From Escherichia coli (GTDB taxonomy: Bacteria > Pseudomonadota > Gammaproteobacteria > Enterobacterales > Enterobacteriaceae), in the NCBI RefSeq assembly GCF_003334765.1, contig NZ_QOWT01000021.1: a stretch of DNA of 64,000 bases. One strand, written 5' to 3'. The position numbers and the translations under genes are program-made. Of the stretch, positions 3,599-28,932 are shown piece after piece (position 1 is the first letter of the stretch; each line of letters opens with the position of its first letter). The notes beneath the pieces are model-generated. The model saw nothing but the letters and a program-made list of their open reading frames with translations. It did no database searches and had not been told where the DNA came from.

Positions 3599-3662
3599 AG
3601 ATAATCCTGCTTGAACAATAAAAGCGTTATGGTAACGCCTGCGATTAACCCGGACCAGCTAT

Positions 3663-5363
3663 TCATTGCGATGGCGCGGGAAGCCAGGCTTCGGTAAATT
3701 CAAACCAGCCGCGCGGTGTCAGTCGCACACCGTTCACGCCGGGAGGGGCACTAATGCGATAGTGATAGTTGAACAGCGGCGTCAGCGTCGCATCTGTCAT
3801 TAACTGGCTAAAAACCGCTTTCAGGGCATTAAATCGGTTTTCTTCATCAGGCATTATTTGCACGGCATCCAGTGTCGATTGTAGATGTGCGTATGCTGGA
3901 GCGTCGAAAACATGTGGCCACAGCGGATCGCAGCGCAGCCATTGCTCCAGAGTATATTCCGGTGCTTCGCCAATTAATCTGTCGCCCATCATGAGGTCTG
4001 CGTGTGCCTGTAGGGTCGTGTCGTCCCAGTTTTTTGCGTTATGAAAAATAATTGTGAGTTCACAGCCTTCCGCTGCCAGTGTCGCCTGTAGGCGTTCTGC
4101 CATGGTATGAAGTTCTATCGGTAGGTGATAAACCAGCGTCAAGGTTTTCGGTAGTTTGACTTCATCCGGTACCTGCCAATGCGGAATAGTCCAGCCTGGC
4201 AGTAATGCATGACTGGCGGTGATCAGGTTTTCTCCGACTTCTAACGTTTGTAATAAACCGGATTGATGAATAATGGAGATCACTTTTCGCGCCTGCCAGA
4301 GGGAGAGTCGGGGACTTTTGCGCAACGTCAAATAGCAAAAACCTAAACTGATGCCGCTACTGACCTGGCTGACCCGTTGCAGCTCCTCCGGTTTGCCGAT
4401 GGTGATTTGCACGGGATGCCGACAACTGGTTCCCAAATCTTTTTCGAAAAGCGGCGGAGTTATCCAGTACTCAACCGCTTTAAGCAGCGGATGACGTAAA
4501 TGGTAATAATCATGGCTTTCCAGGCGCACCAGCTCTGCTGTGAATTGTGTTAAGCGAAAAGGACCCGTGCCGATCAGTGGGAATTGCGGATGCGCCAGAT
4601 GGCTGCAATAGCTCGCCAGCCGGTGCGCAAGCCAGTAATCAGGGCGATGTAAAAAGAAGGTCAGACACTGCGGATGGGTGACTTCAATACGCTTCACGCT
4701 AATAAATAATTGATCCAGTGCTGGCAGTTGTAACAGCATCAATAATCGCTGGTGTAAGTGTGAGGCTTTTACTGCATCGCCGTTATGCCAGTGTAGGGTT
4801 GAACGAAGATAAAAGTCCCAGCGTAACCCGTCAGTAGAGGTTTCCCAGTGATGCGCTAAATCGCCAATCGGGCGCTGAGTATTATTATCGAAGCGGGTCA
4901 GGCCGGAAAATATCTGCCCGGCGAGATGCTGCTCGGCACGGCCGGGCAAAAAGCCTGGTTGTAGCGGTTCGAGCGGGCGATAGTAGGGAATACGCAACGT
5001 GGGTGTATCGTTTTGCCATTGTCCGCCCATAAACGGCTGTAACAGAGTGCGCAGCTCACCTGGGGCCAGTTGCGCCAGCTCCAGCACATCTTGCTGCTTT
5101 CCGGTTTCCAGTGCCTGTTCCATCATCGCATTGCGTAGCGATTCCGGCGTGACCAGAAAGCGTAATTGTCCGCGCTTTCCGCGTCCTGACTGCGCCTGCC
5201 ACTCCAGCCATCCCGCCTCCTGTGCCTGACGCAACAGCGTACGAACATGGCGTTCGCTGCAAAAACAGCGTTCGGCCAGTTCGCTGACGGTGACGGTTTG
5301 CGGCTTTCCGGCGGAAGGTTGCCACAGACGTTGATACTGGTTAAGACGGTTGAGCAATCGCAT
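3663..5363 (-). CDS. ybaE: uncharacterized protein YbaE, solute-binding-protein-like
   Basis: ORF track frame 3663..5378; ATG at 5363 (MRLLNRLNQ..) gives 566 aa; the ORF-track start at 5378 is a TTG further upstream. Confidence 0.85.
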   Translation of the reverse strand: MRLLNRLNQYQRLWQPSAGKPQTVTVSELAERCFCSERHVRTLLRQAQEAGWLEWQAQSGRGKRGQLRFLVTPESLRNAMMEQALETGKQQDVLELAQLAPGELRTLLQPFMGGQWQNDTPTLRIPYYRPLEPLQPGFLPGRAEQHLAGQIFSGLTRFDNNTQRPIGDLAHHWETSTDGLRWDFYLRSTLHWHNGDAVKASHLHQRLLMLLQLPALDQLFISVKRIEVTHPQCLTFFLHRPDYWLAHRLASYCSHLAHPQFPLIGTGPFRLTQFTAELVRLESHDYYHLRHPLLKAVEYWITPPLFEKDLGTSCRHPVQITIGKPEELQRVSQVSSGISLGFCYLTLRKSPRLSLWQARKVISIIHQSGLLQTLEVGENLITASHALLPGWTIPHWQVPDEVKLPKTLTLVYHLPIELHTMAERLQATLAAEGCELTIIFHNAKNWDDTTLQAHADLMMGDRLIGEAPEYTLEQWLRCDPLWPHVFDAPAYAHLQSTLDAVQIMPDEENRFNALKAVFSQLMTDATLTPLFNYHYRISAPPGVNGVRLTPRGWFEFTEAWLPAPSQ

Positions 5364-5462
5364 ATAAACCCGGAACAATATTATTTAACTATTCACTATT
5401 ACTTCCGTATATATCAGGTGATACTCAATCACCATTAACCGTGTCACAGAGTGGAGAAAGAA

Positions 5463-6281
5463 ATGGCTCGTCTGGCAGCATTTGATATGGATGGCACTTT
5501 ATTGATGCCTGACCATCATTTAGGTGAGAAAACCCTCTCTACTTTGGCGCGACTGCGTGAACGCGACATTACCCTCACTTTTGCCACGGGGCGTCATGCG
5601 CTGGAGATGCAGCATATTCTCGGGGCGCTATCGCTGGATGCGTATTTGATTACCGGCAACGGAACGCGCGTGCATTCTCTGGAAGGTGAACTTTTACATC
5701 GTGATGATTTACCTGCGGATGTCGCGGAGCTGGTGCTGTATCAGCAATGGGATACCCGAGCCAGCATGCATATCTTCAATGACGACGGTTGGTTTACCGG
5801 GAAAGAGATCCCTGCGTTGTTGCAGGCATTTGTCTATAGCGGTTTTCGTTATCAGATAATCGATGTCAAAAAAATGCCACTCGGCAGCGTCACCAAGATC
5901 TGCTTCTGTGGCGATCACGACGATCTTACACGCTTGCAGATCCAGCTATACGAAGCATTAGGCGAGCGTGCACATTTGTGTTTTTCCGCCACGGATTGCC
6001 TCGAAGTGCTGCCGGTGGGCTGCAATAAAGGCGCTGCATTGACGGTGCTGACCCAACATTTAGGTTTATCGTTGCGCGATTGCATGGCCTTTGGTGATGC
6101 GATGAACGATCGCGAAATGTTAGTCAGCGTCGGTAGCGGATTTATTATGGGCAATGCGATGCCGCAACTGCGCGCGGAGCTCCCGCATTTACCGGTGATT
6201 GGACATTGCCGAAATCAGGCTGTCTCTCACTATTTGACGCACTGGCTGGACTATCCACATCTACCTTATTCCCCCGAATAA
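5463..6281 (+). CDS. cof: HAD-family HMP-PP phosphatase Cof
   Basis: ATG at 5463 ([14 protein letters not shown].., HAD DxDGT motif) within ORF 5451..6281; followed by strong hairpin+T8 terminator. Confidence 0.9.
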
Positions 6282-6298
6282 CGAGATCCCTTCCAGCA

Positions 6299-6322
6299 CC
6301 GGGCAATTGCCCGGTTTTTTTT
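6299..6322 (+). terminator. rho-independent terminator of cof
   Basis: Perfect palindrome CCGGGCAATTGCCCGG followed by T8, 18 nt after cof stop. Confidence 0.85.
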
Positions 6323-6433
6323 GCGTTGAATTTGTCATTTTGTGCCGTGGTGTTTAAACCGCACAGAATAAATTGTCGTGATTTCACCTTTAAAATAAAA
6401 TTAAAAGAGAAAAAAATTCTCTGTGGAAGGGCT

Positions 6434-6892
6434 ATGTTAGATAAAATTGACCGTAAGCTGCTGGCCTTACTGCAGCAGGATTGCACCCTCTCTTTGCAGG
6501 CACTGGCTGAAGCCGTTAATCTGACAACCACCCCTTGCTGGAAGCGCCTGAAACGGCTGGAGGACGACGGTATCCTTATCGGCAAAGTCGCCCTGCTGGA
6601 TCCGGAAAAAATAGGCCTCGGCCTGACCGCTTTTGTGCTGATAAAAACGCAACATCACAGCAGCGAATGGTATTGCCGCTTTGTCACGGTGGTTACCGAA
6701 ATGCCAGAAGTGCTGGGGTTCTGGCGCATGGCTGGTGAATACGATTATCTGATGCGCGTCCAGGTTGCCGACATGAAACGCTACGACGAGTTTTGTAAGC
6801 GTCTGGTAAACAGCGTGCCGGGGCTGTCGGACGTCACTTCCAGCTTCGCGATGGAACAGATTAAATACACCACTTCTTTACCCATCGAATAA
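6434..6892 (+). CDS. decR: Lrp/AsnC-family transcriptional regulator DecR (YbaO)
   Basis: ATG at 6434 inside over-extended ORF 6206..6892; 152 aa [46 protein letters not shown].. typical AsnC HTH. Confidence 0.9.
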
Positions 6893-6921
6893 ATATCCAG
6901 AATCAGGTCAGGACACAACGC

Positions 6922-10468
<3,547 letters not shown>

Positions 10469-10485
10469 ATAGCGCAATATTTCAT

Positions 10486-10528
10486 CGTTGGTGCAAAAAT
10501 GTAACGCACTGTGCACTGTCATAGTGCG
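10486..10528 (+). promoter_or_regulatory. putative NtrC enhancer-binding sites upstream of the glnK sigma-54 promoter
   Basis: Dyads resembling TGCACC-N5-GGTGCA: TTGGTGCA (10488..10495) and TGCACTGTCATAGTGCG (10512..10528), 55-95 nt upstream of the -24/-12 element. Confidence 0.5.
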
Positions 10529-10580
10529 TTTTCATTTTCAAACTTCTTAACTTCCTGCTCTCTTTCTCGTTTTTCATTTC

Positions 10581-10596
10581 TGGCACACCGCTTGCA
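10581..10596 (+). promoter_or_regulatory. sigma-54 (RpoN) promoter of glnK-amtB
   Basis: TGGCAC-ACCGC-TTGCA (-24 GG / -12 GC elements with canonical spacing) about 50 nt upstream of glnK ATG. Confidence 0.8.
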
Positions 10597-10648
10597 ATAC
10601 CTTCTTCGTGTAGCAGAACCATTACCGAATTCTGACCGGAGGGGATCT

Positions 10649-10987
10649 ATGAAGCTGGTGACCGTGATAATCAAACCATTCAAGCTGGAAGACGTTCGTG
10701 AAGCGTTATCTTCCATTGGTATTCAGGGCCTGACCGTCACCGAAGTGAAAGGTTTCGGGCGTCAGAAAGGGCATGCCGAGCTGTACCGGGGGGCGGAATA
10801 CAGCGTCAATTTCCTGCCAAAAGTAAAAATTGATGTGGCGATTGCTGATGACCAACTCGATGAAGTGATCGATATCGTCAGTAAGGCGGCTTACACCGGA
10901 AAAATTGGCGACGGCAAAATCTTCGTCGCTGAATTGCAACGCGTCATTCGTATTCGTACCGGCGAAGCCGACGAAGCGGCGCTGTAA
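10649..10987 (+). CDS. glnK: nitrogen regulatory protein PII-2 GlnK
   Basis: ATG at 10649 (MKLVTVIIKPFKLEDVREAL..) 112 aa, preceded by GGAGGGGA RBS and a sigma-54 promoter; ORF-track 10511 start is an upstream extension. Confidence 0.95.
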   Translation: MKLVTVIIKPFKLEDVREALSSIGIQGLTVTEVKGFGRQKGHAELYRGAEYSVNFLPKVKIDVAIADDQLDEVIDIVSKAAYTGKIGDGKIFVAELQRVIRIRTGEADEAAL

Positions 10988-11016
10988 TCTCTGGCACACA
11001 GCAACAGGAACGAAAA

Positions 11017-12303
11017 ATGAAGATAGCGACGATAAAAACTGGGCTTGCTTCACTGGCGATGCTTCCGGGACTGGTAATGGCTGCACCTGCGGTGGCCGAT
11101 AAAGCCGACAATGCGTTTATGATGATTTGTACTGCGCTGGTGCTGTTTATGACTATTCCGGGGATTGCCCTGTTTTACGGTGGGTTGATTCGCGGCAAAA
11201 ACGTGCTGTCGATGCTGACGCAGGTGACGGTGACATTTGCACTGGTCTGTATTCTCTGGGTGGTTTACGGTTACTCGCTGGCGTTTGGTGAGGGCAACAA
11301 CTTCTTCGGCAACATTAACTGGTTGATGCTGAAAAACATCGAACTGACGGCGGTGATGGGCAGCATTTATCAGTATATCCACGTGGCGTTTCAGGGATCG
11401 TTTGCCTGCATTACCGTCGGCTTGATAGTTGGGGCGCTGGCGGAACGAATCCGCTTCTCAGCTGTGTTGATTTTCGTGGTGGTATGGCTGACGCTCTCTT
11501 ACATTCCGATTGCGCATATGGTGTGGGGCGGTGGTTTGCTGGCTTCTCACGGTGCGCTGGATTTCGCGGGTGGCACCGTGGTGCACATTAACGCCGCAAT
11601 CGCCGGTCTGGTGGGCGCGTATCTGATAGGAAAACGCGTGGGCTTCGGTAAAGAGGCGTTTAAACCGCACAACCTGCCGATGGTCTTCACCGGGACTGCC
11701 ATTCTCTATATCGGTTGGTTTGGCTTTAACGCCGGGTCAGCGGGCACGGCGAATGAAATCGCGGCACTGGCATTTGTGAATACTGTGGTCGCAACGGCGG
11801 CGGCAATTCTTGGCTGGATCTTCGGTGAATGGGCGCTGCGTGGTAAGCCTTCACTGCTGGGGGCGTGTTCTGGCGCGATTGCCGGTCTGGTCGGCGTGAC
11901 GCCAGCCTGCGGCTACATTGGGGTTGGCGGCGCGTTGATTATCGGCGTGGTAGCTGGTCTGGCGGGCTTGTGGGGCGTTACCATGCTCAAACGCTTGCTG
12001 CGGGTGGATGATCCCTGCGATGTCTTCGGTGTGCACGGCGTTTGTGGCATTGTCGGCTGTATCATGACCGGGATTTTTGCCGCCAGCTCGCTGGGCGGCG
12101 TGGGCTTCGCTGAAGGTGTGACGATGGGCCATCAGTTGCTGGTACAGCTGGAAAGCATCGCCATTACGATCGTCTGGTCCGGTGTTGTGGCATTTATCGG
12201 CTACAAATTGGCGGATCTGACGGTTGGTCTGCGTGTACCGGAAGAGCAGGAGCGAGAAGGGCTGGATGTCAACAGCCACGGCGAGAATGCCTATAACGCG
12301 TAA
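11017..12303 (+). CDS. amtB: ammonium channel AmtB
   Basis: 428 aa multi-TM ORF 29 nt downstream of glnK, signal peptide MKIATIKTGLASLAMLPGLVMA. Confidence 0.95.
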   Translation: MKIATIKTGLASLAMLPGLVMAAPAVADKADNAFMMICTALVLFMTIPGIALFYGGLIRGKNVLSMLTQVTVTFALVCILWVVYGYSLAFGEGNNFFGNINWLMLKNIELTAVMGSIYQYIHVAFQGSFACITVGLIVGALAERIRFSAVLIFVVVWLTLSYIPIAHMVWGGGLLASHGALDFAGGTVVHINAAIAGLVGAYLIGKRVGFGKEAFKPHNLPMVFTGTAILYIGWFGFNAGSAGTANEIAALAFVNTVVATAAAILGWIFGEWALRGKPSLLGACSGAIAGLVGVTPACGYIGVGGALIIGVVAGLAGLWGVTMLKRLLRVDDPCDVFGVHGVCGIVGCIMTGIFAASSLGGVGFAEGVTMGHQLLVQLESIAITIVWSGVVAFIGYKLADLTVGLRVPEEQEREGLDVNSHGENAYNA

Positions 12304-12320
12304 CAAGCACTGCAAAAAAC

Positions 12321-12353
12321 AGCCGGACGGTTTTCACCTCCGGCTATTTTTTT
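12321..12353. terminator. bidirectional rho-independent terminator between convergent amtB and tesB
   Basis: AGCCGGA..TCCGGCT hairpin flanked by A6 upstream and T7 downstream. Confidence 0.75.
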
Positions 12354-13212
12354 AATTGTGATTACGCATCACCCCTTCCTGAACGGTCGAGGCAACCAGT
12401 ACGCCGTCTTGGGTATAAAACTCACCGCGCACAAAGCCACGTGCGCTGGACGCCGAGGTGCTCTCCACGCTATACAGCAGCCATTCATTCAAATTAAACG
12501 GGCGATGGAACCACATGGAATGGTCAATGGTGGCAATCTGAATCCCCGGTTCGAGAAAACCGATGCCGTGCGGCTGTAGAGCTACCGGCAGGAAGTTAAG
12601 ATCAGAAGCGTAACCGAGCAGATACTGATGAACGCGCAGGTCATCCGGCACGCTACCATTTGCGCGGATCCACACCTGACGATGTGGTTCTGCGACGTGA
12701 CCTTTCAGTGGGTTATGAAACTCCACCGGACGGACTTCCAGCGGACGATCGCAGATGAATTTATCTTTCAGCACTGGCGGCAGCAGGTGCGCCAGCGATT
12801 GGGCGATTTGCGTTTCCGAAGGTAGGCCATCAGGCGCTGGCGCGGACGGCATTGTTTTTTGATGTTCGAAACCCGCTTCTGGTGCCTGGAAAGAGGCAGT
12901 CATATAAAAAATCGGTTTGCCGTTTTGAATAGCAGCAACCCGGCGGGCGCTGAAGCTGTTACCGTCACGCAGCGTTTCGACATCATAAATAATCGGCTTC
13001 TTACTATCGCCAGGGCGAAGAAAGTAGCTGTGAAACGAATGTACCAGCCGCTCTTCAGGGACGGTCTCTTTTGCAGCATACAAGGCCTGACCCACGACCT
13101 GGCCGCCAAACACCTGGCGTAAACCTAAATCTTCACTCTGGCCGCGAAAGAGTCCTTCCTCAATTTTTTCCAGATTTAACAATGTCAGTAAATTTTTTAG
13201 CGCCTGACTCAT
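12352..13212 (-). CDS. tesB: acyl-CoA thioesterase II
   Basis: ATG at 13212 ([25 protein letters not shown]..) 286 aa within ORF 12352..13230. Confidence 0.93.
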
Positions 13213-13429
13213 ATAACTCTCCAGTAACAAAGCTGCCGCAGCAAGCCAAAGTGAGTTGAGTATAACGCAAATTTGCTACTGGTCCGATGGGTGCAATGGT
13301 CTGAATTACGGGCTAATTACAGGCAGAAATGCGTGATGTGTGCCACACTTGTTGACGTTACTATTTTGTTAACCACTCTTCCGGCGAGGAAAGTTAGCCC
13401 GCTGGTGCATTGATAATAAGGAGAAATGA

Positions 13430-14002
13430 ATGAAACTCGTGCACATGGCCAGTGGTTTAGCGGTTGCGATTGCGTTGGCGGCTTGCGCAGATAAAAGCGC
13501 GGATATTCAGACGCCAGCACCGGCTGCAAATACGTCTATTTCAGCAACACAACAACCAGCTATCCAGCAACCGAATGTCTCCGGTACCGTCTGGATCCGT
13601 CAGAAAGTCGCACTGCCGCCTGATGCTGTGCTGACCGTGACACTTTCTGACGCGTCGTTAGCCGATGCACCGTCAAAAGTGCTGGCGCAGAAAGCGGTGC
13701 GTACTGAAGGTAAACAGTCACCATTCAGCTTTGTTCTGCCATTTAACCCGGCAGATGTTCAGCCGAACGCGCGTATTCTGTTGAGTGCGGCGATTACCGT
13801 GAATGACAAACAGGTATTTATCACCGATACCGTTCAGCCGGTGATCAACCAGGGCGGAACTAAAGCCGACCTGACATTGGTGCCGGTACAGCAAACCGCC
13901 GTGCCGGTTCAGGCCAGCGGTGGCGCAACGACTACCGTACCTTCGACTTCACCAACTCAGGTGAATCCGTCTTCGGCAGTTCCAGCTCCTACGCAATATT
14001 AA
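13430..14002 (+). CDS. ybaY: lipoprotein YbaY
   Basis: 190 aa ORF with lipoprotein signal peptide and lipobox (..LAACADK). Confidence 0.9.
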   Translation: MKLVHMASGLAVAIALAACADKSADIQTPAPAANTSISATQQPAIQQPNVSGTVWIRQKVALPPDAVLTVTLSDASLADAPSKVLAQKAVRTEGKQSPFSFVLPFNPADVQPNARILLSAAITVNDKQVFITDTVQPVINQGGTKADLTLVPVQQTAVPVQASGGATTTVPSTSPTQVNPSSAVPAPTQY

Positions 14003-14010
14003 GCGACGTT

Positions 14011-14034
14011 AACCCTCTCCGCCCGGAGAGGGTT
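14011..14034. terminator. hairpin between convergent ybaY and atl (probable bidirectional terminator)
   Basis: AACCCTCTCC-GCCC-GGAGAGGGTT perfect inverted repeat starting 9 nt after ybaY stop. Confidence 0.6.
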
Positions 14035-14422
14035 AGTAGTTCCAGCGATAACGCTGCAAGTCGATTTGCCCGCTTCCCGATACCATCACACCTTCTGCCA
14101 GTAATGCCTGTCGCTGACGCTGTAAATCCGGTCCGGTTAGCGAAATTGTGCCGTGGCGATTAACCACCCGGTGCCAGGGTAAGGTGCTGCCTTCAGGGAG
14201 ACGCTTTAACACACCGCCCACCTGGCGCGCGGCGCGGGGCGATCCCGCCAGTTTCGCCACATCACCGTAAGTGGTGACATAGCCTTCGGGAATAGCGGCG
14301 ACGATTTGCCAGACGCGTTGGGGAAATGAATCTTCTTTTTCCATCTTTTCTTCCTGAGGTAATTTTTCAGCATAATCTGGAAAAACGCCCGAGTGAAGTC
14401 GCATTGCGCAAGAAACCAGCAT
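14033..14422 (-). CDS. atl: alkyltransferase-like DNA-binding protein Atl (YbaZ)
   Basis: ATG at 14422 gives 129 aa (MLVSCAMRLHSGVFPDYAEK.. TYGDVAKLAG.. PWHRVVN); ORF-track start 14443 is slightly upstream. Confidence 0.85.
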   Translation of the reverse strand: MLVSCAMRLHSGVFPDYAEKLPQEEKMEKEDSFPQRVWQIVAAIPEGYVTTYGDVAKLAGSPRAARQVGGVLKRLPEGSTLPWHRVVNRHGTISLTGPDLQRQRQALLAEGVMVSGSGQIDLQRYRWNY

Positions 14423-14498
14423 CTGGCACGCGATGGGTTGCAATTAGCCGGGGCAGCAGTGATAATGCGCCTGCGCGTTGGTTCTCAACGCTCTCAAT

Positions 14499-14612
14499 GG
14501 GGGCTCTGTTGGTTCTCCCGCAACGCTACTCTGTTTACCAGGTCAGGTCCGGAAGGAAGCAGCCAAGGCAGATGACGCGTGTGCCGGGATGTAGCTGGCA
14601 GGGCCCCCACCC
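14499..14612 (+). ncRNA. ffs: 4.5S RNA, signal recognition particle RNA
   Basis: 114 nt GGGGGCTCTGTTGGTTCTCCCGCAACGCTACTCTGTTTACCAGGTCAGGTCCGGAAGGAAGCAGCCAAGGCAGATGACGCGTGTGCCGGGATGTAGCTGGCAGGGCCCCCACCC read directly; matches the 4.5S RNA as I recall it, including the conserved GGAAGCAGCCAAGGCAG domain IV core. Confidence 0.95.
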
Positions 14613-14722
14613 ATTTCTGCCTCCCACCGTTTCGTCAAAAAATCCCAACATGGCTAAACTTTAACCACAACTGACGTCGCAAGAATTGTCTGGCTGCGCA
14701 GTACGCTTCGGAGGTATGTCTG

Positions 14723-15076
14723 ATGAAGTATGTTGATGGTTTTGTGGTTGCCGTTCCTGCCGATAAAAAGGATGCCTATCGGGAAATGGCCGCTAAGGCT
14801 GCGCCATTGTTTAAAGAGTTTGGCGCGCTTCGTATTGTCGAATGCTGGGCCAGCGATGTACCGGATGGCAAAGTGACCGATTTTCGTATGGCGGTGAAAG
14901 CGGAAGAGAATGAAGAGGTTGTCTTTAGCTGGATTGAATACCCTTCAAAAGAGGTCCGCGACGCTGCTAATCAAAAGATGATGTCGGACCCACGGATGAA
15001 AGAGTTCGGCGAGTCCATGCCGTTTGACGGCAAGCGAATGATCTATGGCGGATTCGAGTCAATCATCGACGAATAG
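14723..15076 (+). CDS. ybaA: DUF1428-family protein YbaA
   Basis: 117 aa ORF MKYVDGFVVAVPADKKDAYREMA.. with GGAGG RBS upstream. Confidence 0.88.
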   Translation: MKYVDGFVVAVPADKKDAYREMAAKAAPLFKEFGALRIVECWASDVPDGKVTDFRMAVKAEENEEVVFSWIEYPSKEVRDAANQKMMSDPRMKEFGESMPFDGKRMIYGGFESIIDE

Positions 15077-15117
15077 GTAGCGTGACGGGCTGTGCGGCGT
15101 GCCGTCAGCCCAAAAAT

Positions 15118-16674
15118 TCACAAATGTTGCTCGGCCCAGCGTAAGAAATCTTCTTTCGGTAATGCCTTGCTGTAGAGCCAGCCCTGACCGTAGTGCACGC
15201 CATGCTGGCGTAACCACTCTTCTTGTTTACTGGTTTCGATTCCCTCCGCTACCATTTTCAGTTTCAGTGTTTTTGCCATTTCGATGATATGCGGCGTGAC
15301 ATTTTTATATTCCAGCGCATCAACGAAAGATTTATCGATCTTCAGAATGTCGACATCCAGATCCTGTAAATAACTTAAACTTGAATACCCCGTACCAAAA
15401 TCATCAAGATAAATTTCATGGCCCGCCTCCCGGTAGCGAGAAATTATCGGGGCGCTGGTTTTCGGATCGGCAAACTCGCGTTCAGTGAGTTCAAGCGCGA
15501 TCTGTCTGGGATTAACCTGATAGTGATTGATCATGTCACGCAGCAATTGCGGGATTTTTTCCGAGGTGAGCACGGGGGATTCAAGATTGATCGAAATATG
15601 CTGCTGTGGATGCTGACGCAGCCAGTCGCCCATATCTTCAAAGACGCTTCTTATAATCAGTAGCGTCAATGGCTCAGAAAGGCCCGTTTGCTGTGCCAGC
15701 GGAATAAAACTATCTGGTGACAACCAACTACCGTCTGTCTGCGGCCAGCGCGCCAGTGCCTCAGCACCGACAATTTTGCCATTGGCTAAGGAGACAATCG
15801 GCTGATAGTGCACGCAAATATCACGATTTTCGATAGCATCCTGCAGCCGATGATGCGGTGACTGAATACGGCGCAAAATACGCAGCACAAACATCGCTGC
15901 CAGCAGGCCAATCACCAACCCGAGCGGTAACCAAATAAAGACTTGCCGATGCCAGCCTTTCTGCAACATTTTCGTTGAAGCCCATGTGATGATCGAAATA
16001 TTCATCTCCGGTAAGGGCAGGATATCGTAAATGATTCCATTATTTTCGATATGCTCACCGGGTGTTTTTTGTAGCCTGGTAATAATTCCCTGAGCAATTT
16101 CATCGCTGCTGGTTATGACAACGTTATGGGCATTGCCAATAATGGCGGCATCAATTTGCCATGAGCTATAGGGAATGACATCAATAAAGGAAGCGGGGTC
16201 GATCATGACGACATAATGTGCCGTTCCCATGGCGACCATGTAACGGATAATGCCTAAATCGTTATGCGATGTTAACCAGACACGATAACCATCTTTCGAA
16301 ATTTTACCTGGCTCGGGGAAGGTATCGGGCGGACTTTCATGCTCCAGAGACGAACACTGGGGAACGTTGTTATCGATATAAGCCACTTCCTGAATATAGC
16401 GATAACTGTAAGATACCCGACGCATTTCCATGAGATGGGCTTCGCTACAGGCAGCGCCTTGCCATCTTTCCAGCTCCTGCAGCGCATCTTTCCCTTGTGT
16501 CGCCACCTTATTGGCTCGAATAGCGACGCGGGAGGAATAGGTATCCAGCTCTTCAATAAACGATGTTTCTACCTGCTGATGGGCCAGCCAGATGCTTAAG
16601 CCGACAGGCAGCAATACTGAAAGAATCAGTACTCCCGAAATAAGGCCGACCAGATGTCGTGTTCTCACCAGCAT
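15118..16674 (-). CDS. pdeB: c-di-GMP phosphodiesterase PdeB (YlaB), CSS-EAL domain protein
   Basis: 518 aa ORF with N-terminal TM/periplasmic domain and C-terminal EAL domain (..EALARW.. DDFGTGYSSLSYL..); an alternative GTG start 6 nt downstream (16668) is possible. Confidence 0.88.
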   Translation of the reverse strand: MLVRTRHLVGLISGVLILSVLLPVGLSIWLAHQQVETSFIEELDTYSSRVAIRANKVATQGKDALQELERWQGAACSEAHLMEMRRVSYSYRYIQEVAYIDNNVPQCSSLEHESPPDTFPEPGKISKDGYRVWLTSHNDLGIIRYMVAMGTAHYVVMIDPASFIDVIPYSSWQIDAAIIGNAHNVVITSSDEIAQGIITRLQKTPGEHIENNGIIYDILPLPEMNISIITWASTKMLQKGWHRQVFIWLPLGLVIGLLAAMFVLRILRRIQSPHHRLQDAIENRDICVHYQPIVSLANGKIVGAEALARWPQTDGSWLSPDSFIPLAQQTGLSEPLTLLIIRSVFEDMGDWLRQHPQQHISINLESPVLTSEKIPQLLRDMINHYQVNPRQIALELTEREFADPKTSAPIISRYREAGHEIYLDDFGTGYSSLSYLQDLDVDILKIDKSFVDALEYKNVTPHIIEMAKTLKLKMVAEGIETSKQEEWLRQHGVHYGQGWLYSKALPKEDFLRWAEQHL

Positions 16675-16831
16675 ATCCTTATTAACACAGTGTAGGGAAA
16701 GTATATCTGATTGTGGAAAAAGGCTGGCTGGAGATAAGGAGGTAGAGCTGGTATTTCATGAAGTGATGGGTGGAAACGATCATTGTCATTTGACCAGGCG
16801 CAGAGCTTTACGCCTGGTATGTAACCCTAAC

Positions 16832-17302
16832 TTAAGATGTTGATTCGGCGCGAGCGAGGGTAAAAATATCGTAAAAAGACAGTTCACCTTTACGGACGAT
16901 CATTTTTTGCAGTTGTTCCTTATGAACATCCGCGACACGCGGAGAGTTCAAGATGGCTTCAACCAGCGCGGCAGGTACAAAGCGCGTGTTGTACCATTCG
17001 CCGTTATAGCAAACGCGGAAATCCAGCACGTCGATATCTTCATAGCGGTAGCGTGGGTAGACATCGAAAAAGAAGAAACCATTAAGCAGGATAAATAATA
17101 CAACCAGTAGCCAGACAGAGCCTGACAGCGTTTCGGACTGCAACATCACCGCCAGGGTGGCAAAAAAAGCAACGTACATACCGATAAACAGCCCCGGATG
17201 TTTACGGATAAAACTGATACTAAAGCGGGGTTTGTTGTCGCGTTTTTCGCGGGTATTCAGAGACTCAATCGTTTCGGTCAGCAGGCGTTGTATTTCGGTC
17301 AT
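16832..17302 (-). CDS. ylaC: inner membrane protein YlaC
   Basis: ATG at 17302 ([22 protein letters not shown]..) 156 aa with two hydrophobic helices; ORF-track start 17341 is upstream. Confidence 0.85.
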
Positions 17303-17417
17303 CGTTTGCCTTCGTGGTATCTGCAACTTTCCAGGGAACACCCTATTTTAACGTGGGAATAGTAGAGGGGAAGTAACAGATCTACCACAATTTTGCATAA
17401 CAGTTGCGAAAAACCGA

Positions 17418-17969
17418 TTACAATTTTTTAATTATTCTGGCTGGATTACCGCCCACGACAACGTTGTCCGGGACATCTTTTGTGACAACTGCACCTGAGG
17501 CTACCACGACGTTATCACCAATGGTCACACCAGGGTTAATGACCGCGCGTCCGCCAATCCAGACGTTATTACCGATGGTGACGGGTTTCCCCAGTTCAGC
17601 ACCGCTATTACGTGCTACAGGGTCGATGGGATGTGTTGCCGTGTAGATATGAACGCCTGGTGCCAACATACAGTTATCACCGATGCGAATAGGGCAGACA
17701 TCAAGCATCACGCAATCGAAGTTGGCGAAAAAATTATTACCGAGAAAAATGTTATAGCCATAGTCACAGCGAAACGTTGGCTCAATATAAGCCTCTGTCA
17801 CCTGACCGAATAGATCAGCGAGAATTTGCTGGCGTAATGTGTGCTCTTCCGCCAGGGAATGATTGTATCGGTGAATAAGCTGACGAGCGCGCAGGCGATC
17901 GCGAGATAACGTCTCATCTGCCGAGCGATACAACTCACCAGCAATCATCTTTTCTTTTTCTGTGCTCAT
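17418..17969 (-). CDS. maa: maltose O-acetyltransferase (hexapeptide-repeat acyltransferase)
   Basis: 183 aa [24 protein letters not shown].. with left-handed beta-helix hexapeptide repeats. Confidence 0.93.
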
Positions 17970-18140
17970 TACTGACCTCCGGTTGCTGAAAATGCGGCAA
18001 CACAGTAAGACGAAAAGTCAGTGAAGAGAACGTTCCCATTACATCTGTGTGATAAAGATCACATAGGGTATGTCTTCATGGCGAAAAAGTATAAAATTCT
18101 TAATAAACAGCCGGTTATAGCTCCGAAAGCGAATTATTTA

Positions 18141-18359
18141 TTAGCGAATAAATTTCCATACTGAGGAAGGGATCTTGTCGTACAGTTTATTCATGGTCAA
18201 TTCGGCGAGGCGGTGATCTGCGGCTGAGTAAAATACCGCCAGTTCATTATCTGATAATTCGTATTTATTTTTCTCGATAACACGCTCCAGCGTGTCAATT
18301 GTCTGGCAACGACGTAAACGCATTAAATAATCGGTTTTCGTTAAAGGTTTTTCGGACAT
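18141..18359 (-). CDS. hha: haemolysin expression-modulating protein Hha (H-NS co-regulator)
   Basis: ATG at 18359 ([72 protein letters not shown]) 72 aa; ORF-track entry is an in-frame upstream extension into tomB. Confidence 0.95.
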
Positions 18360-18384
18360 ACTTCTACCTATGGTTGTAATAATT

Positions 18385-18759
18385 CTAACAAGATAAACTC
18401 GCAGGATTCTCTTTCGTCGCATTGACAAAACAACGGAATAGTCGATTACCTGACTTCCGCCATTTCTGAAGATCCTGCATATTAATACCATAACTACTGA
18501 ACAACATAAAGGTGTCATCCAGATATTCGTCGATCTGCTCAATGAGCTTATTGTCTTCATTATACTTAATTTTGTAATTAAGTGCGAAGGTCGCAATATG
18601 CTCAATCAGTTCATTCAACTGGAGGTTGATCGCCGAGGTTGGGTCGTTTACCCAGCCATGATTGCTTTCTTCAAGGTTTGCAAGGCAGTCATGATACAGG
18701 GTTTCACAGAGAAACTTAAGCTGTGCGATATCATGTCTTTTGGGTGAGTATTCATCCAT
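18385..18759 (-). CDS. tomB: Hha toxicity modulator TomB (YbaJ)
   Basis: 124 aa [34 protein letters not shown].. 25 nt upstream of hha on the same strand. Confidence 0.93.
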
Positions 18760-19263
18760 AACGCGTCCCCTTCTTAGCGGTTGAACTAACGGACACCTTT
18801 CGGGATGGAAAAAACTTACTGACCTGGACTTGCCCTCTCGTTTGTTAGCTTAACTATAAGCCACTCTTTGCAGGTTTTCATCGCATTATTACGAAAAATT
18901 ACAATTAGGAAGGAAGCGGGACAGGACTCACTTTTTCATACTAGCACTAACCCGCAGCAGGTAAAAGCAGTTTGCTCGAACTATTCATAACATTTCAGGA
19001 TTATCGCCAGATGAAATTGGTGACACTAATACCAGGATTGCTCTGAATATGACGTAATAACCGAGGAATGAATAAAGAATTACCGCAAATAATTAAGAAT
19101 AGCCTCTAAATGATTATGGATTATTAAATCTATTAGCGCTACTTAATATAAATTAACTAACAATCAGTATTTTTTATGAATTTTATCCGTGGTTAATACT
19201 GGTTTTCGTATGAGATCCTGAGTTGGTGGTTCAATTACTCCTTAATGTTCGTAGGTTATGCAT

Positions 19264-19285
19264 AAAAAAGGCCGCTTACGCGGCC
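19264..19285 (-). terminator. rho-independent terminator of acrAB
   Basis: Minus-strand GGCCGCGTAAGCGGCC hairpin (19270..19285) followed by U6 (A-run 19264..19269 on plus strand), 20 nt after acrB stop. Confidence 0.7.
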
Positions 19286-19304
19286 TTAGTGATTACACGT
19301 TGTA

Positions 19305-22457
<3,153 letters not shown>

Positions 22458-22476
22458 TTAACGGCTCCTGTTTAAG

Positions 22477-23670
22477 TTAAGACTTGGACTGTTCAGGCTG
22501 AGCACCGCTTGCGGCTTGCTGGTTATTATCAGCGGTAACTTCTTGTGCTTTTACCTGGACACCAGGACGCACTTTCTGCAGCCCACTTATTACTACGCGA
22601 TCGCCTGCTTTCAGACCTTCTGTCACCAGCCACTTATCGCCAATAGCCTGGCTTGCAACGATCGGACGGGTTTCCACTTTGTCATCCGCGCCAACTACCA
22701 GTACGGTGGCATCGCCACGCGGCGTACGGGTTACGCCCTGTTGCGGGACTAAAATAGCGTTTGGATTAAGCCCTTCTTCCAGACGTGCGCGCACGAACAT
22801 ACCCGGCAGCAGAGTGTGATCCGGGTTCGGGAAGATAGCGCGTAGGGTGATAGACCCAGTGGTCTGATCAACGGTAACGTCAGAGAATTCCAGCGTACCG
22901 TCCTGCGGGAACTTAATGCCGTCACTGGTGATCAGTGACACTTTGGCTTTGCCGTTCTCTTGTTTCAGCGTGCCATTCGCCAGTTCCTGTTTCAGGCGCA
23001 GGAAGTCGTTGCTGGACTGGGTCACATCAACGTAGATCGGATCAAGTTGCTGCACGGTTGCCAGCGCAGTCGCCTGACCGTTCTGTACCAATGCGCCTTC
23101 CGTCACGTTCGACTTACCAATGCGACCGCTAATCGGAGAGGTGACTTTGGTGTAAGCCAGATTGATCCGCGCAGTTTCAACGGCAGCTTTCGCCGCAGTT
23201 ACCGCAGCATTCGCCTGTTGCGCATCAGCCAGAGCCTGATCGTACTCTTGCTTACTGATGTACTGAGTACCGAGCAGTTTCTGATAACGATTCACCGTCA
23301 ATTGCGCGATATTGGCTGCAGCCTGGGCTTTCGCCAGATCACCTTTCGCACTGTCGTATGTCGCCTGATAGGTCGCAGGATCAATCTGATAGAGAGAGAC
23401 ACCTGCTTCGATGTCGCTACCTTCTTTGAAATTACGCTTCAGGATAATCCCGCTAACTTGAGGACGAACTTCTGCGATCCGGTAGGCACTGGTGCGACCC
23501 GGAAGCTCGGTTGTGATCTGCAGAGGTTCAGTTTTGACTGTTACTACGCCAACGGCGGGCATCTGCTGGCCACCTTGTTGGGCCTGTTTGTCGTCACATC
23601 CTGTTAGGGCTAAGCTGCCTGAGAGCATCAGAACGACCGCCAGAGGCGTAAACCCTCTGTTTTTGTTCAT
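22477..23670 (-). CDS. acrA: RND efflux periplasmic adaptor (membrane fusion lipoprotein) AcrA
   Basis: ATG at 23670 (MNKNRGFTPLAVVLMLSGSLALTGCDDKQ..) 397 aa, lipobox LTGC; 22 nt upstream of acrB. Confidence 0.97.
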   Translation of the reverse strand: MNKNRGFTPLAVVLMLSGSLALTGCDDKQAQQGGQQMPAVGVVTVKTEPLQITTELPGRTSAYRIAEVRPQVSGIILKRNFKEGSDIEAGVSLYQIDPATYQATYDSAKGDLAKAQAAANIAQLTVNRYQKLLGTQYISKQEYDQALADAQQANAAVTAAKAAVETARINLAYTKVTSPISGRIGKSNVTEGALVQNGQATALATVQQLDPIYVDVTQSSNDFLRLKQELANGTLKQENGKAKVSLITSDGIKFPQDGTLEFSDVTVDQTTGSITLRAIFPNPDHTLLPGMFVRARLEEGLNPNAILVPQQGVTRTPRGDATVLVVGADDKVETRPIVASQAIGDKWLVTEGLKAGDRVVISGLQKVRPGVQVKAQEVTADNNQQAASGAQPEQSKS

Positions 23671-23759
23671 ATGTAAACCTCGAGTGTCCGATTTCAAATT
23701 GGTCAATGGTCAAAAGTTAATAAACCCATTGCTGCGTTTATATTATCGTCGTGCTATGG

Positions 23760-23783
23760 TACATACATTCACAAATGTATGTA
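23760..23783. promoter_or_regulatory. AcrR operator, 24-bp inverted repeat in the divergent acrR/acrAB promoter region
   Basis: TACATACATTCACAAATGTATGTA read directly; near-perfect palindrome (TACATACATT / AATGTATGTA arms) 28 nt upstream of acrR ATG. Confidence 0.85.
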
Positions 23784-23811
23784 AATCTAACGCCTGTAAA
23801 TTCACGAACAT

Positions 23812-24459
23812 ATGGCACGAAAAACCAAACAAGAAGCGCAAGAAACGCGCCAACACATCCTCGATGTGGCTCTACGTCTTTTCTCACAGCAGGGGGTATC
23901 ATCCACCTCGCTGGGCGAGATTGCAAAAGCAGCTGGCGTTACGCGCGGTGCAATCTACTGGCATTTTAAAGACAAGTCGGATTTGTTCAGTGAGATCTGG
24001 GAACTGTCAGAATCCAATATTGGTGAACTAGAGCTTGAGTATCAGGCAAAATTCCCTGGCGATCCACTCTCAGTATTAAGAGAGATATTAATTCATGTTC
24101 TTGAATCCACGGTGACAGAAGAACGGCGTCGATTATTGATGGAGATTATATTCCACAAATGCGAATTTGTCGGAGAAATGGCTGTTGTGCAACAGGCACA
24201 ACGTAATCTCTGTCTGGAAAGTTATGACCGTATAGAACAAACGTTAAAACATTGTATTGAAGCGAAAATGTTGCCTGCGGATTTAATGACGCGTCGCGCA
24301 GCAATTATTATGCGCGGCTATATTTCCGGCCTGATGGAAAACTGGCTCTTTGCCCCGCAATCTTTTGATCTTAAAAAAGAAGCCCGCGATTACGTTGCCA
24401 TCTTACTGGAGATGTATCTCCTGTGCCCCACGCTTCGTAATCCTGCCACTAACGAATAA
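23812..24459 (+). CDS. acrR: TetR-family repressor of acrAB
   Basis: 215 aa [55 protein letters not shown].. TetR HTH. Confidence 0.97.
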
Positions 24460-24586
24460 CCCTGAATCTGACTCCAGGATTTTTCCTGGACATTTTCGTC
24501 GTTGCTATTCTGGTTCACTGCGTCGTGATATTCTTGCGGTTTGACTTTTTCAGGTCGTTCTTCAGGTTCAGAAACCTTCATTCATC

Positions 24587-27500
24587 ATGACTATGTTCCA
24601 GTATTACAAACGATCACGGCATTTTGTTTTTTCAGCATTTATTGCTTTTGTTTTTGTCTTGTTATGCCAGAACACGGCGTTTGCGCGGGCGTCATCGAAT
24701 GGTGATCTGCCGACAAAAGCGGACCTGCAGGCGCAACTTGACTCACTAAATAAACAAAAAGATCTTTCTGCTCAGGACAAACTGGTGCAGCAGGATCTGA
24801 CAGATACATTAGCCACCCTCGATAAAATCGATCGCATAAAAGAAGAGACAGTTCAGCTACGGCAAAAAGTCGCTGAAGCGCCGGAAAAAATGCGCCAGGC
24901 GACCGCGGCGTTAACAGCACTTAGCGATGTCGATAACGACGAAGAAACGCGCAAAATTCTGAGCACGCTGTCGTTGCGCCAGCTGGAAACTCGCGTTGCC
25001 CAGGCGCTGGACGATTTGCAAAACGCACAAAACGATCTGGCGTCTTATAACAGCCAGCTGGTTTCGTTACAGACGCAGCCCGAACGCGTGCAAAATGCGA
25101 TGTATAACGCTTCGCAGCAGCTGCAACAAATTCGCAGTCGTCTGGATGGGACTGATGTCGGCGAGACAGCCTTACGTCCCAGCCAGAAAGTGTTAATGCA
25201 GGCCCAGCAGGCGTTGCTGAATGCGGAGATTGACCAGCAGCGTAAAAGCCTGGAAGGGAACACCGTCTTGCAGGATACCTTGCAAAAGCAACGTGATTAC
25301 GTGACGGCGAACAGCGCTCGTCTGGAGCACCAGTTACAACTGTTGCAAGAAGCGGTAAACAGCAAGCGCCTGACTTTAACCGAAAAAACGGCGCAGGAAG
25401 CCGTCTCCCCGGATGAAGCCGCGCGTATTCAGGCTAATCCGCTGGTGAAGCAGGAACTGGAAATTAACCAGCAGTTAAGTCAGCGTCTGATTACCGCGAC
25501 TGAAAACGGTAATCAGTTGATGCAGCAAAACATTAAAGTCAAAAACTGGCTGGAGCGGGCGCTGCAATCGGAACGCAATATTAAAGAGCAGATTGCCGTC
25601 CTGAAGGGCAGCCTGCTGTTGTCTCGTATCCTTTACCAGCAACAACAAACGCTGCCCTCGGCGGATGAACTGGAAAACATGACCAACCGCATCGCGGATT
25701 TGCGTCTCGAACAGTTTGAAGTTAACCAGCAGCGTGATGCACTCTTCCAGAGCGATGCGTTCGTCAACAAACTGGAAGAAGGTCACACCAACGAAGTCAA
25801 CAGCGAAGTTCACGATGCGTTATTGCAAGTGGTTGATATGCGTCGCGAATTGCTGGATCAACTCAACAAACAGTTGGGTAACCAGCTGATGATGGCCATT
25901 AACCTGCAAATCAACCAGCAGCAGTTAATGAGTGTGTCGAAAAACCTGAAATCCATCCTGACTCAGCAAATCTTTTGGGTGAACAGTAACCGTCCAATGG
26001 ACTGGGACTGGATCAAAGCGTTCCCGCAAAGCCTGAAAGATGAATTTAAGTCGATGAAAATCACGGTGAACTGGCAAAAAGCCTGGCCCGCCGTTTTTAT
26101 CGCTTTCCTCGCTGGTTTGCCGCTGCTGTTGATTGCCGGGCTGATCCACTGGCGTCTGGGCTGGCTGAAAGCGTATCAACAAAAACTGGCTTCCGCTGTG
26201 GGTTCCCTGCGTAACGACAGCCAGCTCAACACACCAAAAGCGATCCTTATCGACCTGATCCGTGCGCTGCCGGTGTGCCTGATTATTCTCGCGGTTGGCC
26301 TGATTCTGTTGACCATGCAGCTCAACATCAGCGAACTGCTATGGTCGTTCAGCAAAAAACTGGCGATATTCTGGCTGGTGTTTGGCCTGTGCTGGAAGGT
26401 ACTGGAGAAAAACGGCGTTGCCGTACGTCACTTCGGCATGCCGGAACAGCAGACCAGCCACTGGCGTCGGCAAATTGTCCGCATCAGTCTCGCATTGCTG
26501 CCTATCCATTTCTGGTCTGTGGTGGCAGAACTTTCCCCGCTGCATCTGATGGATGATGTGCTGGGGCAAGCGATGATTTTCTTCAACCTGCTGCTGATTG
26601 CCTTCCTGGTATGGCCGATGTGCCGCGAAAGCTGGCGTGATAAAGAGTCGCACACCATGCGACTGGTCACCATTACCGTGCTGTCGATAATCCCGATTGC
26701 GCTGATGGTGCTGACTGCTACAGGCTACTTCTACACTACGCTGCGTCTGGCAGGACGCTGGATTGAAACCGTTTATCTGGTGATCATCTGGAACCTGCTG
26801 TACCAGACGGTACTGCGTGGCTTAAGCGTAGCGGCGCGGCGTATCGCCTGGCGTCGTGCGCTGGCGCGTCGGCAGAATCTGGTGAAAGAGGGCGCAGAAG
26901 GTGCTGAACCGCCGGAAGAACCCACCATTGCACTGGAGCAAGTTAACCAGCAGACGCTGCGTATTACCATGTTGCTGATGTTTGCGCTGTTCGGTGTCAT
27001 GTTCTGGGCAATTTGGTCCGATTTGATCACCGTGTTCAGCTATCTCGACAGCATCACGCTCTGGCATTACAACGGCACTGAAGCTGGCGCTGCGGTGGTG
27101 AAAAACGTCACCATGGGCAGTCTGTTGTTTGCGATTATCGCCTCAATGGTGGCCTGGGCGTTGATTCGCAACCTGCCTGGTTTACTGGAAGTGCTGGTGC
27201 TCTCGCGACTGAATATGCGCCAGGGCGCGTCGTATGCCATTACTACCATCCTTAACTACATCATTATTGCTGTTGGTGCGATGACGGTGTTCGGATCGCT
27301 GGGCGTCTCTTGGGATAAACTCCAGTGGCTGGCCGCAGCATTATCCGTAGGTCTTGGTTTTGGTTTACAAGAAATTTTCGGTAACTTCGTCTCCGGTTTG
27401 ATCATTCTATTCGAACGTCCGGTGCGTATTGGCGATACGGTAACCATTGGTAGCTTCTCGGGGACGGTAAGTAAGATCCGTATTCGTGCGACAACGATTA

Positions 27501-27949
27501 CCGATTTCGATCGCAAAGAAGTGATCATCCCGAACAAAGCGTTTGTTACCGAGCGTCTGATCAACTGGTCGTTGACTGACACTACTACGCGTCTGGTGAT
27601 CCGTCTCGGCGTGGCCTATGGCTCCGATCTGGAAAAAGTGCGTAAAGTGTTACTGAAGGCGGCGACTGAGCACCCAAGGGTGATGCACGAACCAATGCCG
27701 GAAGTCTTCTTTACGGCATTTGGTGCCAGCACGTTGGATCATGAGCTGCGTCTGTATGTGCGTGAACTGCGTGACCGTAGTCGTACTGTCGATGAGCTGA
27801 ACCGTACTATCGATCAGCTGTGCCGTGAAAACGACATCAACATTGCCTTTAACCAGCTTGAAGTGCATCTGCACAACGAGAAGGGCGATGAGGTGACGGA
27901 AGTAAAACGCGACTACAAAGGCGATGACCCGACGCCAGCGGTAGGGTAA
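24587..27949 (+). CDS. mscK: potassium-dependent mechanosensitive channel MscK (KefA)
   Basis: 1120 aa ORF: signal peptide, long coiled-coil periplasmic domain, multiple TMs and C-terminal MscS-like domain. Confidence 0.95.
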   Translation: MTMFQYYKRSRHFVFSAFIAFVFVLLCQNTAFARASSNGDLPTKADLQAQLDSLNKQKDLSAQDKLVQQDLTDTLATLDKIDRIKEETVQLRQKVAEAPEKMRQATAALTALSDVDNDEETRKILSTLSLRQLETRVAQALDDLQNAQNDLASYNSQLVSLQTQPERVQNAMYNASQQLQQIRSRLDGTDVGETALRPSQKVLMQAQQALLNAEIDQQRKSLEGNTVLQDTLQKQRDYVTANSARLEHQLQLLQEAVNSKRLTLTEKTAQEAVSPDEAARIQANPLVKQELEINQQLSQRLITATENGNQLMQQNIKVKNWLERALQSERNIKEQIAVLKGSLLLSRILYQQQQTLPSADELENMTNRIADLRLEQFEVNQQRDALFQSDAFVNKLEEGHTNEVNSEVHDALLQVVDMRRELLDQLNKQLGNQLMMAINLQINQQQLMSVSKNLKSILTQQIFWVNSNRPMDWDWIKAFPQSLKDEFKSMKITVNWQKAWPAVFIAFLAGLPLLLIAGLIHWRLGWLKAYQQKLASAVGSLRNDSQLNTPKAILIDLIRALPVCLIILAVGLILLTMQLNISELLWSFSKKLAIFWLVFGLCWKVLEKNGVAVRHFGMPEQQTSHWRRQIVRISLALLPIHFWSVVAELSPLHLMDDVLGQAMIFFNLLLIAFLVWPMCRESWRDKESHTMRLVTITVLSIIPIALMVLTATGYFYTTLRLAGRWIETVYLVIIWNLLYQTVLRGLSVAARRIAWRRALARRQNLVKEGAEGAEPPEEPTIALEQVNQQTLRITMLLMFALFGVMFWAIWSDLITVFSYLDSITLWHYNGTEAGAAVVKNVTMGSLLFAIIASMVAWALIRNLPGLLEVLVLSRLNMRQGASYAITTILNYIIIAVGAMTVFGSLGVSWDKLQWLAAALSVGLGFGLQEIFGNFVSGLIILFERPVRIGDTVTIGSFSGTVSKIRIRATTITDFDRKEVIIPNKAFVTERLINWSLTDTTTRLVIRLGVAYGSDLEKVRKVLLKAATEHPRVMHEPMPEVFFTAFGASTLDHELRLYVRELRDRSRTVDELNRTIDQLCRENDINIAFNQLEVHLHNEKGDEVTEVKRDYKGDDPTPAVG

Positions 27950-28007
27950 AAACGAAAGGGGGCAACATTTAGTTGCCCCGAGATTGCTAACAAAGTGCGC
28001 GTTGTTC

Positions 28008-28108
28008 ATGCCGGATGCGGCGTGACCGCCTTATCCGGCCTACGAAACCGCAAGAATTCAATATATTGCAGGAGCGGTGTAGGCCTGATAAGCGTAGCGC
28101 ATCAGGCA
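28008..28108. repeat. REP/BIME element (two inverted REP units) in mscK-ybaM spacer
   Basis: ATGCCGGATGCGGCGTGACCGCCTTATCCGGCCTAC and inverted GTAGGCCTGATAAGCGTAGCGCATCAGGCA copies. Confidence 0.75.
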
Positions 28109-28160
28109 GTTTTGCGTTTGCCCGCAACCTTAGGGGACATTTAGCGACCCCATTTATTTC

Positions 28161-28322
28161 TCACTTTTCCGCCTCATCATCGCGCGTTAATTTCTTTTCA
28201 TAATCACGCTTTACAATATCCAGCGCGCGCAGCACGGTACTGGCAGGGATCTGATTTTCCTCCAGCAGCACAATCAAATCGACAGCCAGTTTGACATCGT
28301 CAGGGGCATTTTCCAGTGACAT
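28161..28322 (-). CDS. ybaM: small protein YbaM (DUF2496), 53 aa
   Basis: Not in ORF track (<60 aa). Minus-strand ATG at 28322 to TGA at 28161: [53 protein letters not shown]; 13 nt upstream of priC. Confidence 0.85.
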
Positions 28323-28335
28323 ATTCTCTCCATTG

Positions 28336-28863
28336 CTAGCGGGTTAAACGCGCTAACCTGTTTTCGATTTTTTCCAGCGCATGGCGGCAGCGTGCCAGGC
28401 GCGCTTCATAGGCTTCCACTTCACGATGCAGCGTTTGCTGTTCCACGAGATCGGTCACCCGCGCCAGACGGGCTCTGCGTTCGGCAACCATCTCACGTAG
28501 CCGCCGCTCAAAATCCTGATGCTGAATACGTTTACGCTGCCAGCGGGCAATTTTCGGTGGTGCACTGTCCCACTCGCGCAATGACCAGGCGGAGGCTTCA
28601 CGCGCGATGGCTTCCAGTTGTGCCGCCAGATGTTCCGCCAGCCAGGCCACTTGCGGCAGCTGTTGCTGCTCAACTGCATGACGAAGCGCAGCCAGATTAT
28701 CGCCCGCCTCGTCGAGACAAGCCTGTAGTGTTGTCGCACGAGTCTGAAAAAGATGCCTGTCGAAACGAGCACTTAGCGTGGCGAACTGTGACACCGGGGC
28801 ACAACGCTGACGCAGCGTAGCGAGCTGTCCTTCCAGTTTTTCCAGCAGCAGGGCGGTTTTCAC
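28336..28863 (-). CDS. priC: primosomal replication protein N'' (PriC)
   Basis: 175 aa ORF (GTG start) [40 protein letters not shown].. Confidence 0.92.
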
Positions 28864-28932
28864 GATAAGACCTCAATGAAAATGATAATTGTTATGCTAA
28901 AGTAGCCACTCTGTAAGCTGACAACACTCAAT

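Follow-up and report, generated by a model that had tools for sequence, protein, structure and literature searches.

The DNA analysed here, referred to as the window, is a stretch of 64,000 nucleotides of Escherichia coli, in which the divergent genes acrA and acrR are separated by a control region comprising two sets of promoter elements, a palindromic operator and the leader of acrA (Table 1). The first-pass annotation had delimited this control region to 23671..23811, which is exactly the 141-bp gap between the acrA ATG (23670, minus strand) and the acrR ATG (23812, plus strand). In the K-12 annotation, the locus is ordered as tomB-acrB-acrA on the one side and acrR-mscK on the other side. 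The identity of the two genes flanking the control region is supported at the protein level, where AcrR scored 419.3 bits against the NCBIfam equivalog NF007949 (cut-off 271) and AcrA 885 bits against its NCBIfam equivalog (cut-off 765), while the AcrR protein further aligned over its full length (residues 1-215) with the E. coli AcrR of PDB 2QOP (E 1.6e-141). The gene beside the operator thus encodes a TetR-family helix-turn-helix (HTH) repressor, specifically AcrR. At the DNA level, a 901-bp query over acrA'-acrR was 100% identical to K-12 MG1655 as well as to many natural isolates, with the matched features annotated as acrA and acrR.

Table 1. Features of the acrB-acrA-acrR locus in the window (position 1 is the first letter of the window).
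Feature	Position	Strand	Description	Evidence
acrB	19305..22454	-	RND transporter, 1049 aa	DNA identical to K-12
acrA	22477..23670	-	Periplasmic adaptor of the AcrAB-TolC pump, 397 aa	DNA identical to K-12
acrA 5' leader	23671..23749	-	5' end inferred from the -10 position	High conservation
Shine-Dalgarno of acrA leader	23678-23681	-	GAGG (+ strand CCTC)	
Putative CsrA-site counterpart in acrA leader	23686-23691	-	TCGGAC (+ strand GTCCGA); counterpart of the Salmonella secondary CsrA site	
Candidate acrR promoter, -35	23717-23722	+	TTAATA	Consensus scan
Candidate acrR promoter, -10	23741..23746	+	TATTAT	Consensus scan
Predicted acrAB promoter, -10	23756..23761	-	TACCAT; overlaps left operator arm by 2 nt	Consensus scan, conservation
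AcrR (and EnvR/AcrS) operator	23760..23783	.	Arms TACATACATT / AATGTATGTA, spacer CACA	Inverted repeat, identity to published site, conservation
Predicted acrAB promoter, -35	23780..23785	-	TTTACA; overlaps right operator arm by 4 nt	Consensus scan, conservation
Marbox (MarA/SoxS/Rob activator site)	23812..23831	+	ATGGCACGAAAAACCAAACA; first 20 nt of acrR	Consensus match, conservation, PMC11642870
acrR	23812..24459	+	TetR-family repressor, 215 aa, intact	DNA identical to K-12

Over a larger part of the window, namely 3600..44500 (40.9 kb), comparison with one MG1655 record revealed 8 differing positions (5510, 6795, 9284, 12823, 13739, 13812, 33596 and 36475), none of which falls within acrB-acrA-acrR and the intergenic region (19305..24459), where the two sequences are base-for-base identical. 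Since the segment 5000-14500 (9.5 kb), which holds six of these eight positions, has a listed identity of 100.0% to human, swine and environmental isolates, the window is not K-12 itself but a haplotype occurring in natural E. coli and closely similar to K-12. As regards base composition, the intergenic region is 64.5% A+T vs 47.2% for the window as a whole. An Rfam scan of the whole window returned the REP-derived nucleoid-associated RNA naRNA4 at 39498-39575, 46636-46713 and 46737-46814 (two of them on both strands), sroB at 45255-45338, the SRP RNA at 14507-14603 and the DnaX frameshift element at 31407-31471, and no RNA family matching the acrA-acrR control region.

The most prominent element of the control region, as read directly in the window, is the 24-bp sequence TACATACATTCACAAATGTATGTA at 23760..23783. 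By inverted-repeat search, it resolves into two arms of 10 nt each (23760-23769 and 23774-23783), 100% complementary and separated by 4 nt. Because the central CACA is not self-complementary, 20 of the 24 positions are symmetric, and the earlier description of an “almost perfect” inverted repeat is a fair one, with both arms being perfect. When the window was shuffled by dinucleotides, a perfect inverted repeat of this class (arm length 10 nt or more, loop length 8 nt or less) turned up 0.63 times per 64 kb, i.e., about 0.0014 by our own scaling to 141 bp, and the palindrome is thus far beyond chance. Within the 64-kb window, the operator 24-mer had no second match at up to 3 mismatches, and none was found in 100 shuffles either. 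The other perfect repeats of the window that reach this arm length (2395-2419, 14010-14035, 33067-33090, 35051-35078, 41494-41520, 44625-44648 and 55420-55445) are mostly G+C-rich hairpins, several with GCCGGATG/CATCCGGC, and may represent terminators or REP elements. Part of the operator also recurs as a degenerate direct repeat, TAAATTCACGAACATATG, at 23797-23814 (78% to 23764-23781), i.e., 33 nt downstream and extending to the acrR ATG; considered as a second operator, it was rejected, being non-palindromic by reading and poorly conserved beyond the Enterobacteriaceae, and it is taken as a chance or vestigial resemblance.

Considering the literature, the reverse complement of 23760..23783 is exactly TACATACATTTGTGAATGTATGTA, that is the AcrR site quoted in two publications and attributed to Su, Rutherford and Yu 2007 (PMC9769551, PMC10597343). 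This site is described as two 10-bp inverted repeats with a 4-bp spacer (PMC10597343), and purified AcrR shifts a 179-bp fragment in electrophoretic mobility shift assay (EMSA) (PMC9769551, PMC10597343), the primers of which map to 23664..23842 of the window. Ethidium and polyamines release AcrR from DNA (PMC9769551). In Salmonella, EnvR binds the same palindrome and this binding is abolished by mutating both arms (PMC9780535). The AcrR-binding site proposed in the first-pass annotation is therefore upheld, by identity with the published site and by an adjacent gene that is acrR according to both NCBIfam and PDB 2QOP. It is nearly certain that AcrR, the TetR-family repressor encoded at this locus, has its operator in this palindrome, inside the core promoter of acrAB; as such, the element is the well-characterised AcrR operator in its wild-type form, already known and ordinary.

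The conservation of the operator was considered beyond E. coli by a scan with the AcrR protein, one genome per species, which provided 80 loci with AcrR 60-98% identical, 79 of them with upstream sequence, from Escherichia, Salmonella, Citrobacter, Klebsiella and Enterobacter to Serratia, Erwinia, Pantoea and Rouxiella, and corresponding to 75 distinct control-region sequences. In all 79 loci, the best operator match keeps 21 to 24 of the 24 bases and is located 27-29 nt from the acrR ATG; the same geometry is found in a Yersinia enterocolitica study, where the AcrR motif is at -52 to -29 of the acrR ATG. Across the 75 distinct sequences, no change occurs in eight of the ten arm pairs, and the other two vary only in the left arm (23764 T to A in 10 sequences, 23769 T to C or A in 8), whereas the spacer takes six forms, namely CACA, CATA, CGCG, CGCA, CAAA and CATG. 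In AcrR itself, the mean identity to the E. coli residue is 0.86 in the N-terminal DNA-binding domain vs 0.73 in the rest of the protein.

This pattern of variation bears on an alternative reading, in which the palindrome would function chiefly as a hairpin in the RNA of the acrR leader, or as a cruciform in the DNA, with an effect on the stability or translation of the acrR mRNA. The plus-strand RNA of 23750..23830 does fold with the palindrome as a 10-bp stem (minimum free energy -18.1 kcal/mol, z = -3.15 vs shuffles), and an outer stem, 23750-23758 with 23811-23819, would cover the acrR AUG. The arm changes, however, are all one-sided and break a pair in 18 of the 75 sequences without a single compensatory change, and such uncompensated changes together with a free spacer are indicative of a dyad protein-binding site and not of a hairpin. 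The outer stem is likewise broken one-sidedly, by 23751 G to A in 23/75 sequences, and its conservation is already explained, the 3' arm being formed by the start codon and the invariant marbox and the 5' arm overlapping the acrAB -10; a long-range pairing of 23749-23757 with 23812-23820 over the acrR AUG was rejected on these grounds. Moreover, direct binding of AcrR and EnvR is published (PMC9769551, PMC9780535), and any transcription of the palindrome would depend on the candidate acrR start. A hairpin as the main function of the palindrome is thus very improbable despite its good folding. A functionless chance repeat, for which an A+T-rich intergenic composition favouring A/T-rich self-complementarity could be invoked, has a negligible probability and is refuted by the low expectation in 64 kb, by arms nearly invariant across genera where AcrR is only 60% identical, and by identity to an experimentally defined site with published binding data.

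Regarding the palindrome as the AcrR operator, its position relative to the promoters suggests how repression could be exerted, bearing in mind that the acrAB and acrR promoter positions are predicted from consensus scan and conservation. On the minus strand, the operator fills the 18-nt spacer of the predicted acrAB promoter (TTTACA-18-TACCAT), both hexamers of which are conserved in the Enterobacterales alignment. Because the operator spans this spacer and overlaps both hexamers, the bound repressor should exclude RNA polymerase from the acrAB promoter. On the plus strand, the -10 of the candidate acrR promoter is conserved at 80-95% and its -35 falls where conservation is lowest, which makes this assignment weaker; if this promoter is used, the acrR transcript would contain the operator at roughly +7 to +30. 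An alternative plus-strand -35, TTCACA at 23768-23773, was discarded upon sequence inspection, with no acceptable -10 at 16-18 nt. With the operator placed downstream of the candidate acrR promoter and ahead of the acrR start codon, AcrR occupying it should impede acrR transcription as well, which would be compatible with autorepression.

At the molecular level, the 10-bp arms serve as half-sites for the HTH domains of AcrR, which may bind as a pair of dimers, as suggested in the literature. According to published work, AcrR leaves the DNA when pump substrates or polyamines bind its C-terminal domain. EnvR/AcrS, a paralogous repressor for which binding to the E. coli acrAB promoter has been reported, acts through the same palindrome, as shown by mutagenesis in Salmonella. 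As for activation, the published data show that MarA, SoxS or Rob activate the acrAB promoter from a marbox overlapping the acrR start codon. In the window, every one of the operator, promoter, marbox and acrR parts has the wild-type sequence.

This marbox lies 26 nt upstream of the acrAB -35, and its consensus, a degenerate 20-bp sequence (AYnGCACnnWnnRYYAAAYn), is matched on the plus strand, opposite to that of the acrAB promoter. The sequence ATGGCACGAAAAACCAAAC at 23812..23830 has 0 mismatches to the consensus AYNGCACNNWNNRYYAAAY. Taken alone, the consensus match is weak evidence because 2 sites occur in the window at up to 1 mismatch vs 1.07 expected by chance. The first 20 nt of acrR are described as containing the marbox for MarA, SoxS and Rob, and when acrR is deleted, full acrAB-mediated resistance requires that these 20 nt be retained (PMC11642870). 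Conservation points in the same direction, as ATGGCACGAAAAACCAAA is invariant in 11 genera, including at synonymous codon positions, while the next codons vary, which argues for a constraint at the DNA level superimposed on the acrR coding sequence at the marbox.

On the other side of the operator, the highly conserved acrA leader contains, on the minus strand, a conserved, modestly supported 6-bp stem (mRNA CAAUGG/CCAUUG; plus strand CAATGG 23704-23709 and CCATTG 23726-23731), in which a two-sided A-T to G-C change keeps the pair in 5 of the 75 distinct sequences. Within the 141-bp region, poor conservation is confined to the loop of this stem. The CsrA sites of the acrA leader were defined in Salmonella, where the primary one, TAAGGAC, is situated in this loop (PMC5727465). 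This motif is absent from E. coli, the loop of which is without GGA, while GGA is present in the loop in several other aligned genera. Given this difference in the loop, E. coli and Salmonella might not share the same control of acrAB translation by CsrA, although this suggestion is tentative and somewhat doubtful.

Among the multidrug efflux pumps of E. coli, AcrAB-TolC is the main one, and the loss of AcrR repression raises resistance, so that the locus is worth screening in isolates. Among the 5424 complete E. coli genomes containing the region, the 141 bp are at least 99% identical in 5420, and the 36-nt promoter/operator core (23754..23789) is exact in 5383, with one change in the other 41; changes in the operator are therefore rare. 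In 21 of these 41 genomes, the single change is that of the spacer from CACA to CATA (23772), and a T at 23772 is commoner in other genera (Salmonella, Enterobacter, Klebsiella-related and others). In a B-strain derivative, a G-to-A change is found at 23792. Plasmid-labelled records, including NZ_CP147085.1 (a 162-kb record), also account for two or three matches to the acrA-acrR control region, one such match being a 25-nt, 96% partial one.

Besides these substitutions, the variants actually seen in complete genomes are acrR disruptions and one insertion sequence (IS) beside the operator. In NZ_CP122499.1, an IS1 is inserted in acrR after nt 392 (codon 131; about 24203 in the window), and three more listed genomes show a two-piece acrR match with an IS1 transposase; IS1 in acrR illustrates the usual route to AcrR loss. 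In NZ_CP148461.1, a chicken isolate, a 1095-bp IS481-family element at 2621-3715, with a 6-bp target duplication (ATCTAA, window 23785-23790), is located beside the acrAB -35 and operator and separates both from the marbox and acrR. The earlier view, by which resistance commonly arises through sequence changes in this region, is consequently retained for the acrR coding sequence but not for the 141-bp region, considering its near identity across complete genomes. It can be added that an IS or a deletion taking the first 20 nt of acrR would remove the marbox and thereby prevent full activation (PMC11642870).

For the window itself, the natural occurrence of such variants (IS1 in acrR in NZ_CP122499, the IS481-family element in NZ_CP148461) makes it conceivable that the locus carries a resistance-associated change, i.e., a substitution in the operator or promoter, a lesion of acrR or an inserted IS, and it is exceedingly unlikely that it does. 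The comparison of the 141-bp region and acrR with the reference, as proposed in the first-pass annotation, was run and gave identity to K-12 MG1655, with no substitution or IS; the IS1 in acrR, the IS481-family insertion and the 23792 change are all absent from the window. As none of the eight differences from the MG1655 record falls within this locus and the 901-bp query is fully identical to K-12, a resistance-associated change is refuted by the base-for-base comparison. The screen is thus negative here, with the operator, both promoters, the marbox, acrR, acrA and acrB all being wild type.

Respective to known regulatory systems, the locus resembles those of QacR (IR1), TtgR, MtrR and TetR (tetO), where a palindrome in a divergent intergenic region overlaps the pump promoter, the N-terminal HTH binds it and a ligand releases the repressor; the sequence of the half-sites, however, is unlike that of AcrR. 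In a PDB search with AcrR, TtgR (E 2e-44) and MtrR (E 2e-32) were the nearest solved relatives, and the solved structures of AcrR itself were 2QOP, 3BCG and 3LHQ only, with no AcrR-DNA complex among them. A dimer-of-dimers model for AcrR binding is quoted in the literature (PMC10597343), and, with no DNA-bound AcrR structure found, the two-dimer arrangement is drawn by analogy. Compared with the mar/sox/rob marbox at acrAB, the activator site of the window is at the same position and matches the consensus; it is asymmetric and separate from the palindrome, 28 nt from the operator. The EnvR/AcrS site corresponds to the same 24-bp palindrome and differs by its repressor, a paralogue encoded beside acrEF, outside the window. 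The closest counterpart remains the E. coli acrAB operator of AcrR (Su, Rutherford and Yu 2007, as quoted in PMC9769551 and PMC10597343), with which the palindrome shares its sequence, its position and the adjacent repressor gene, without any difference.
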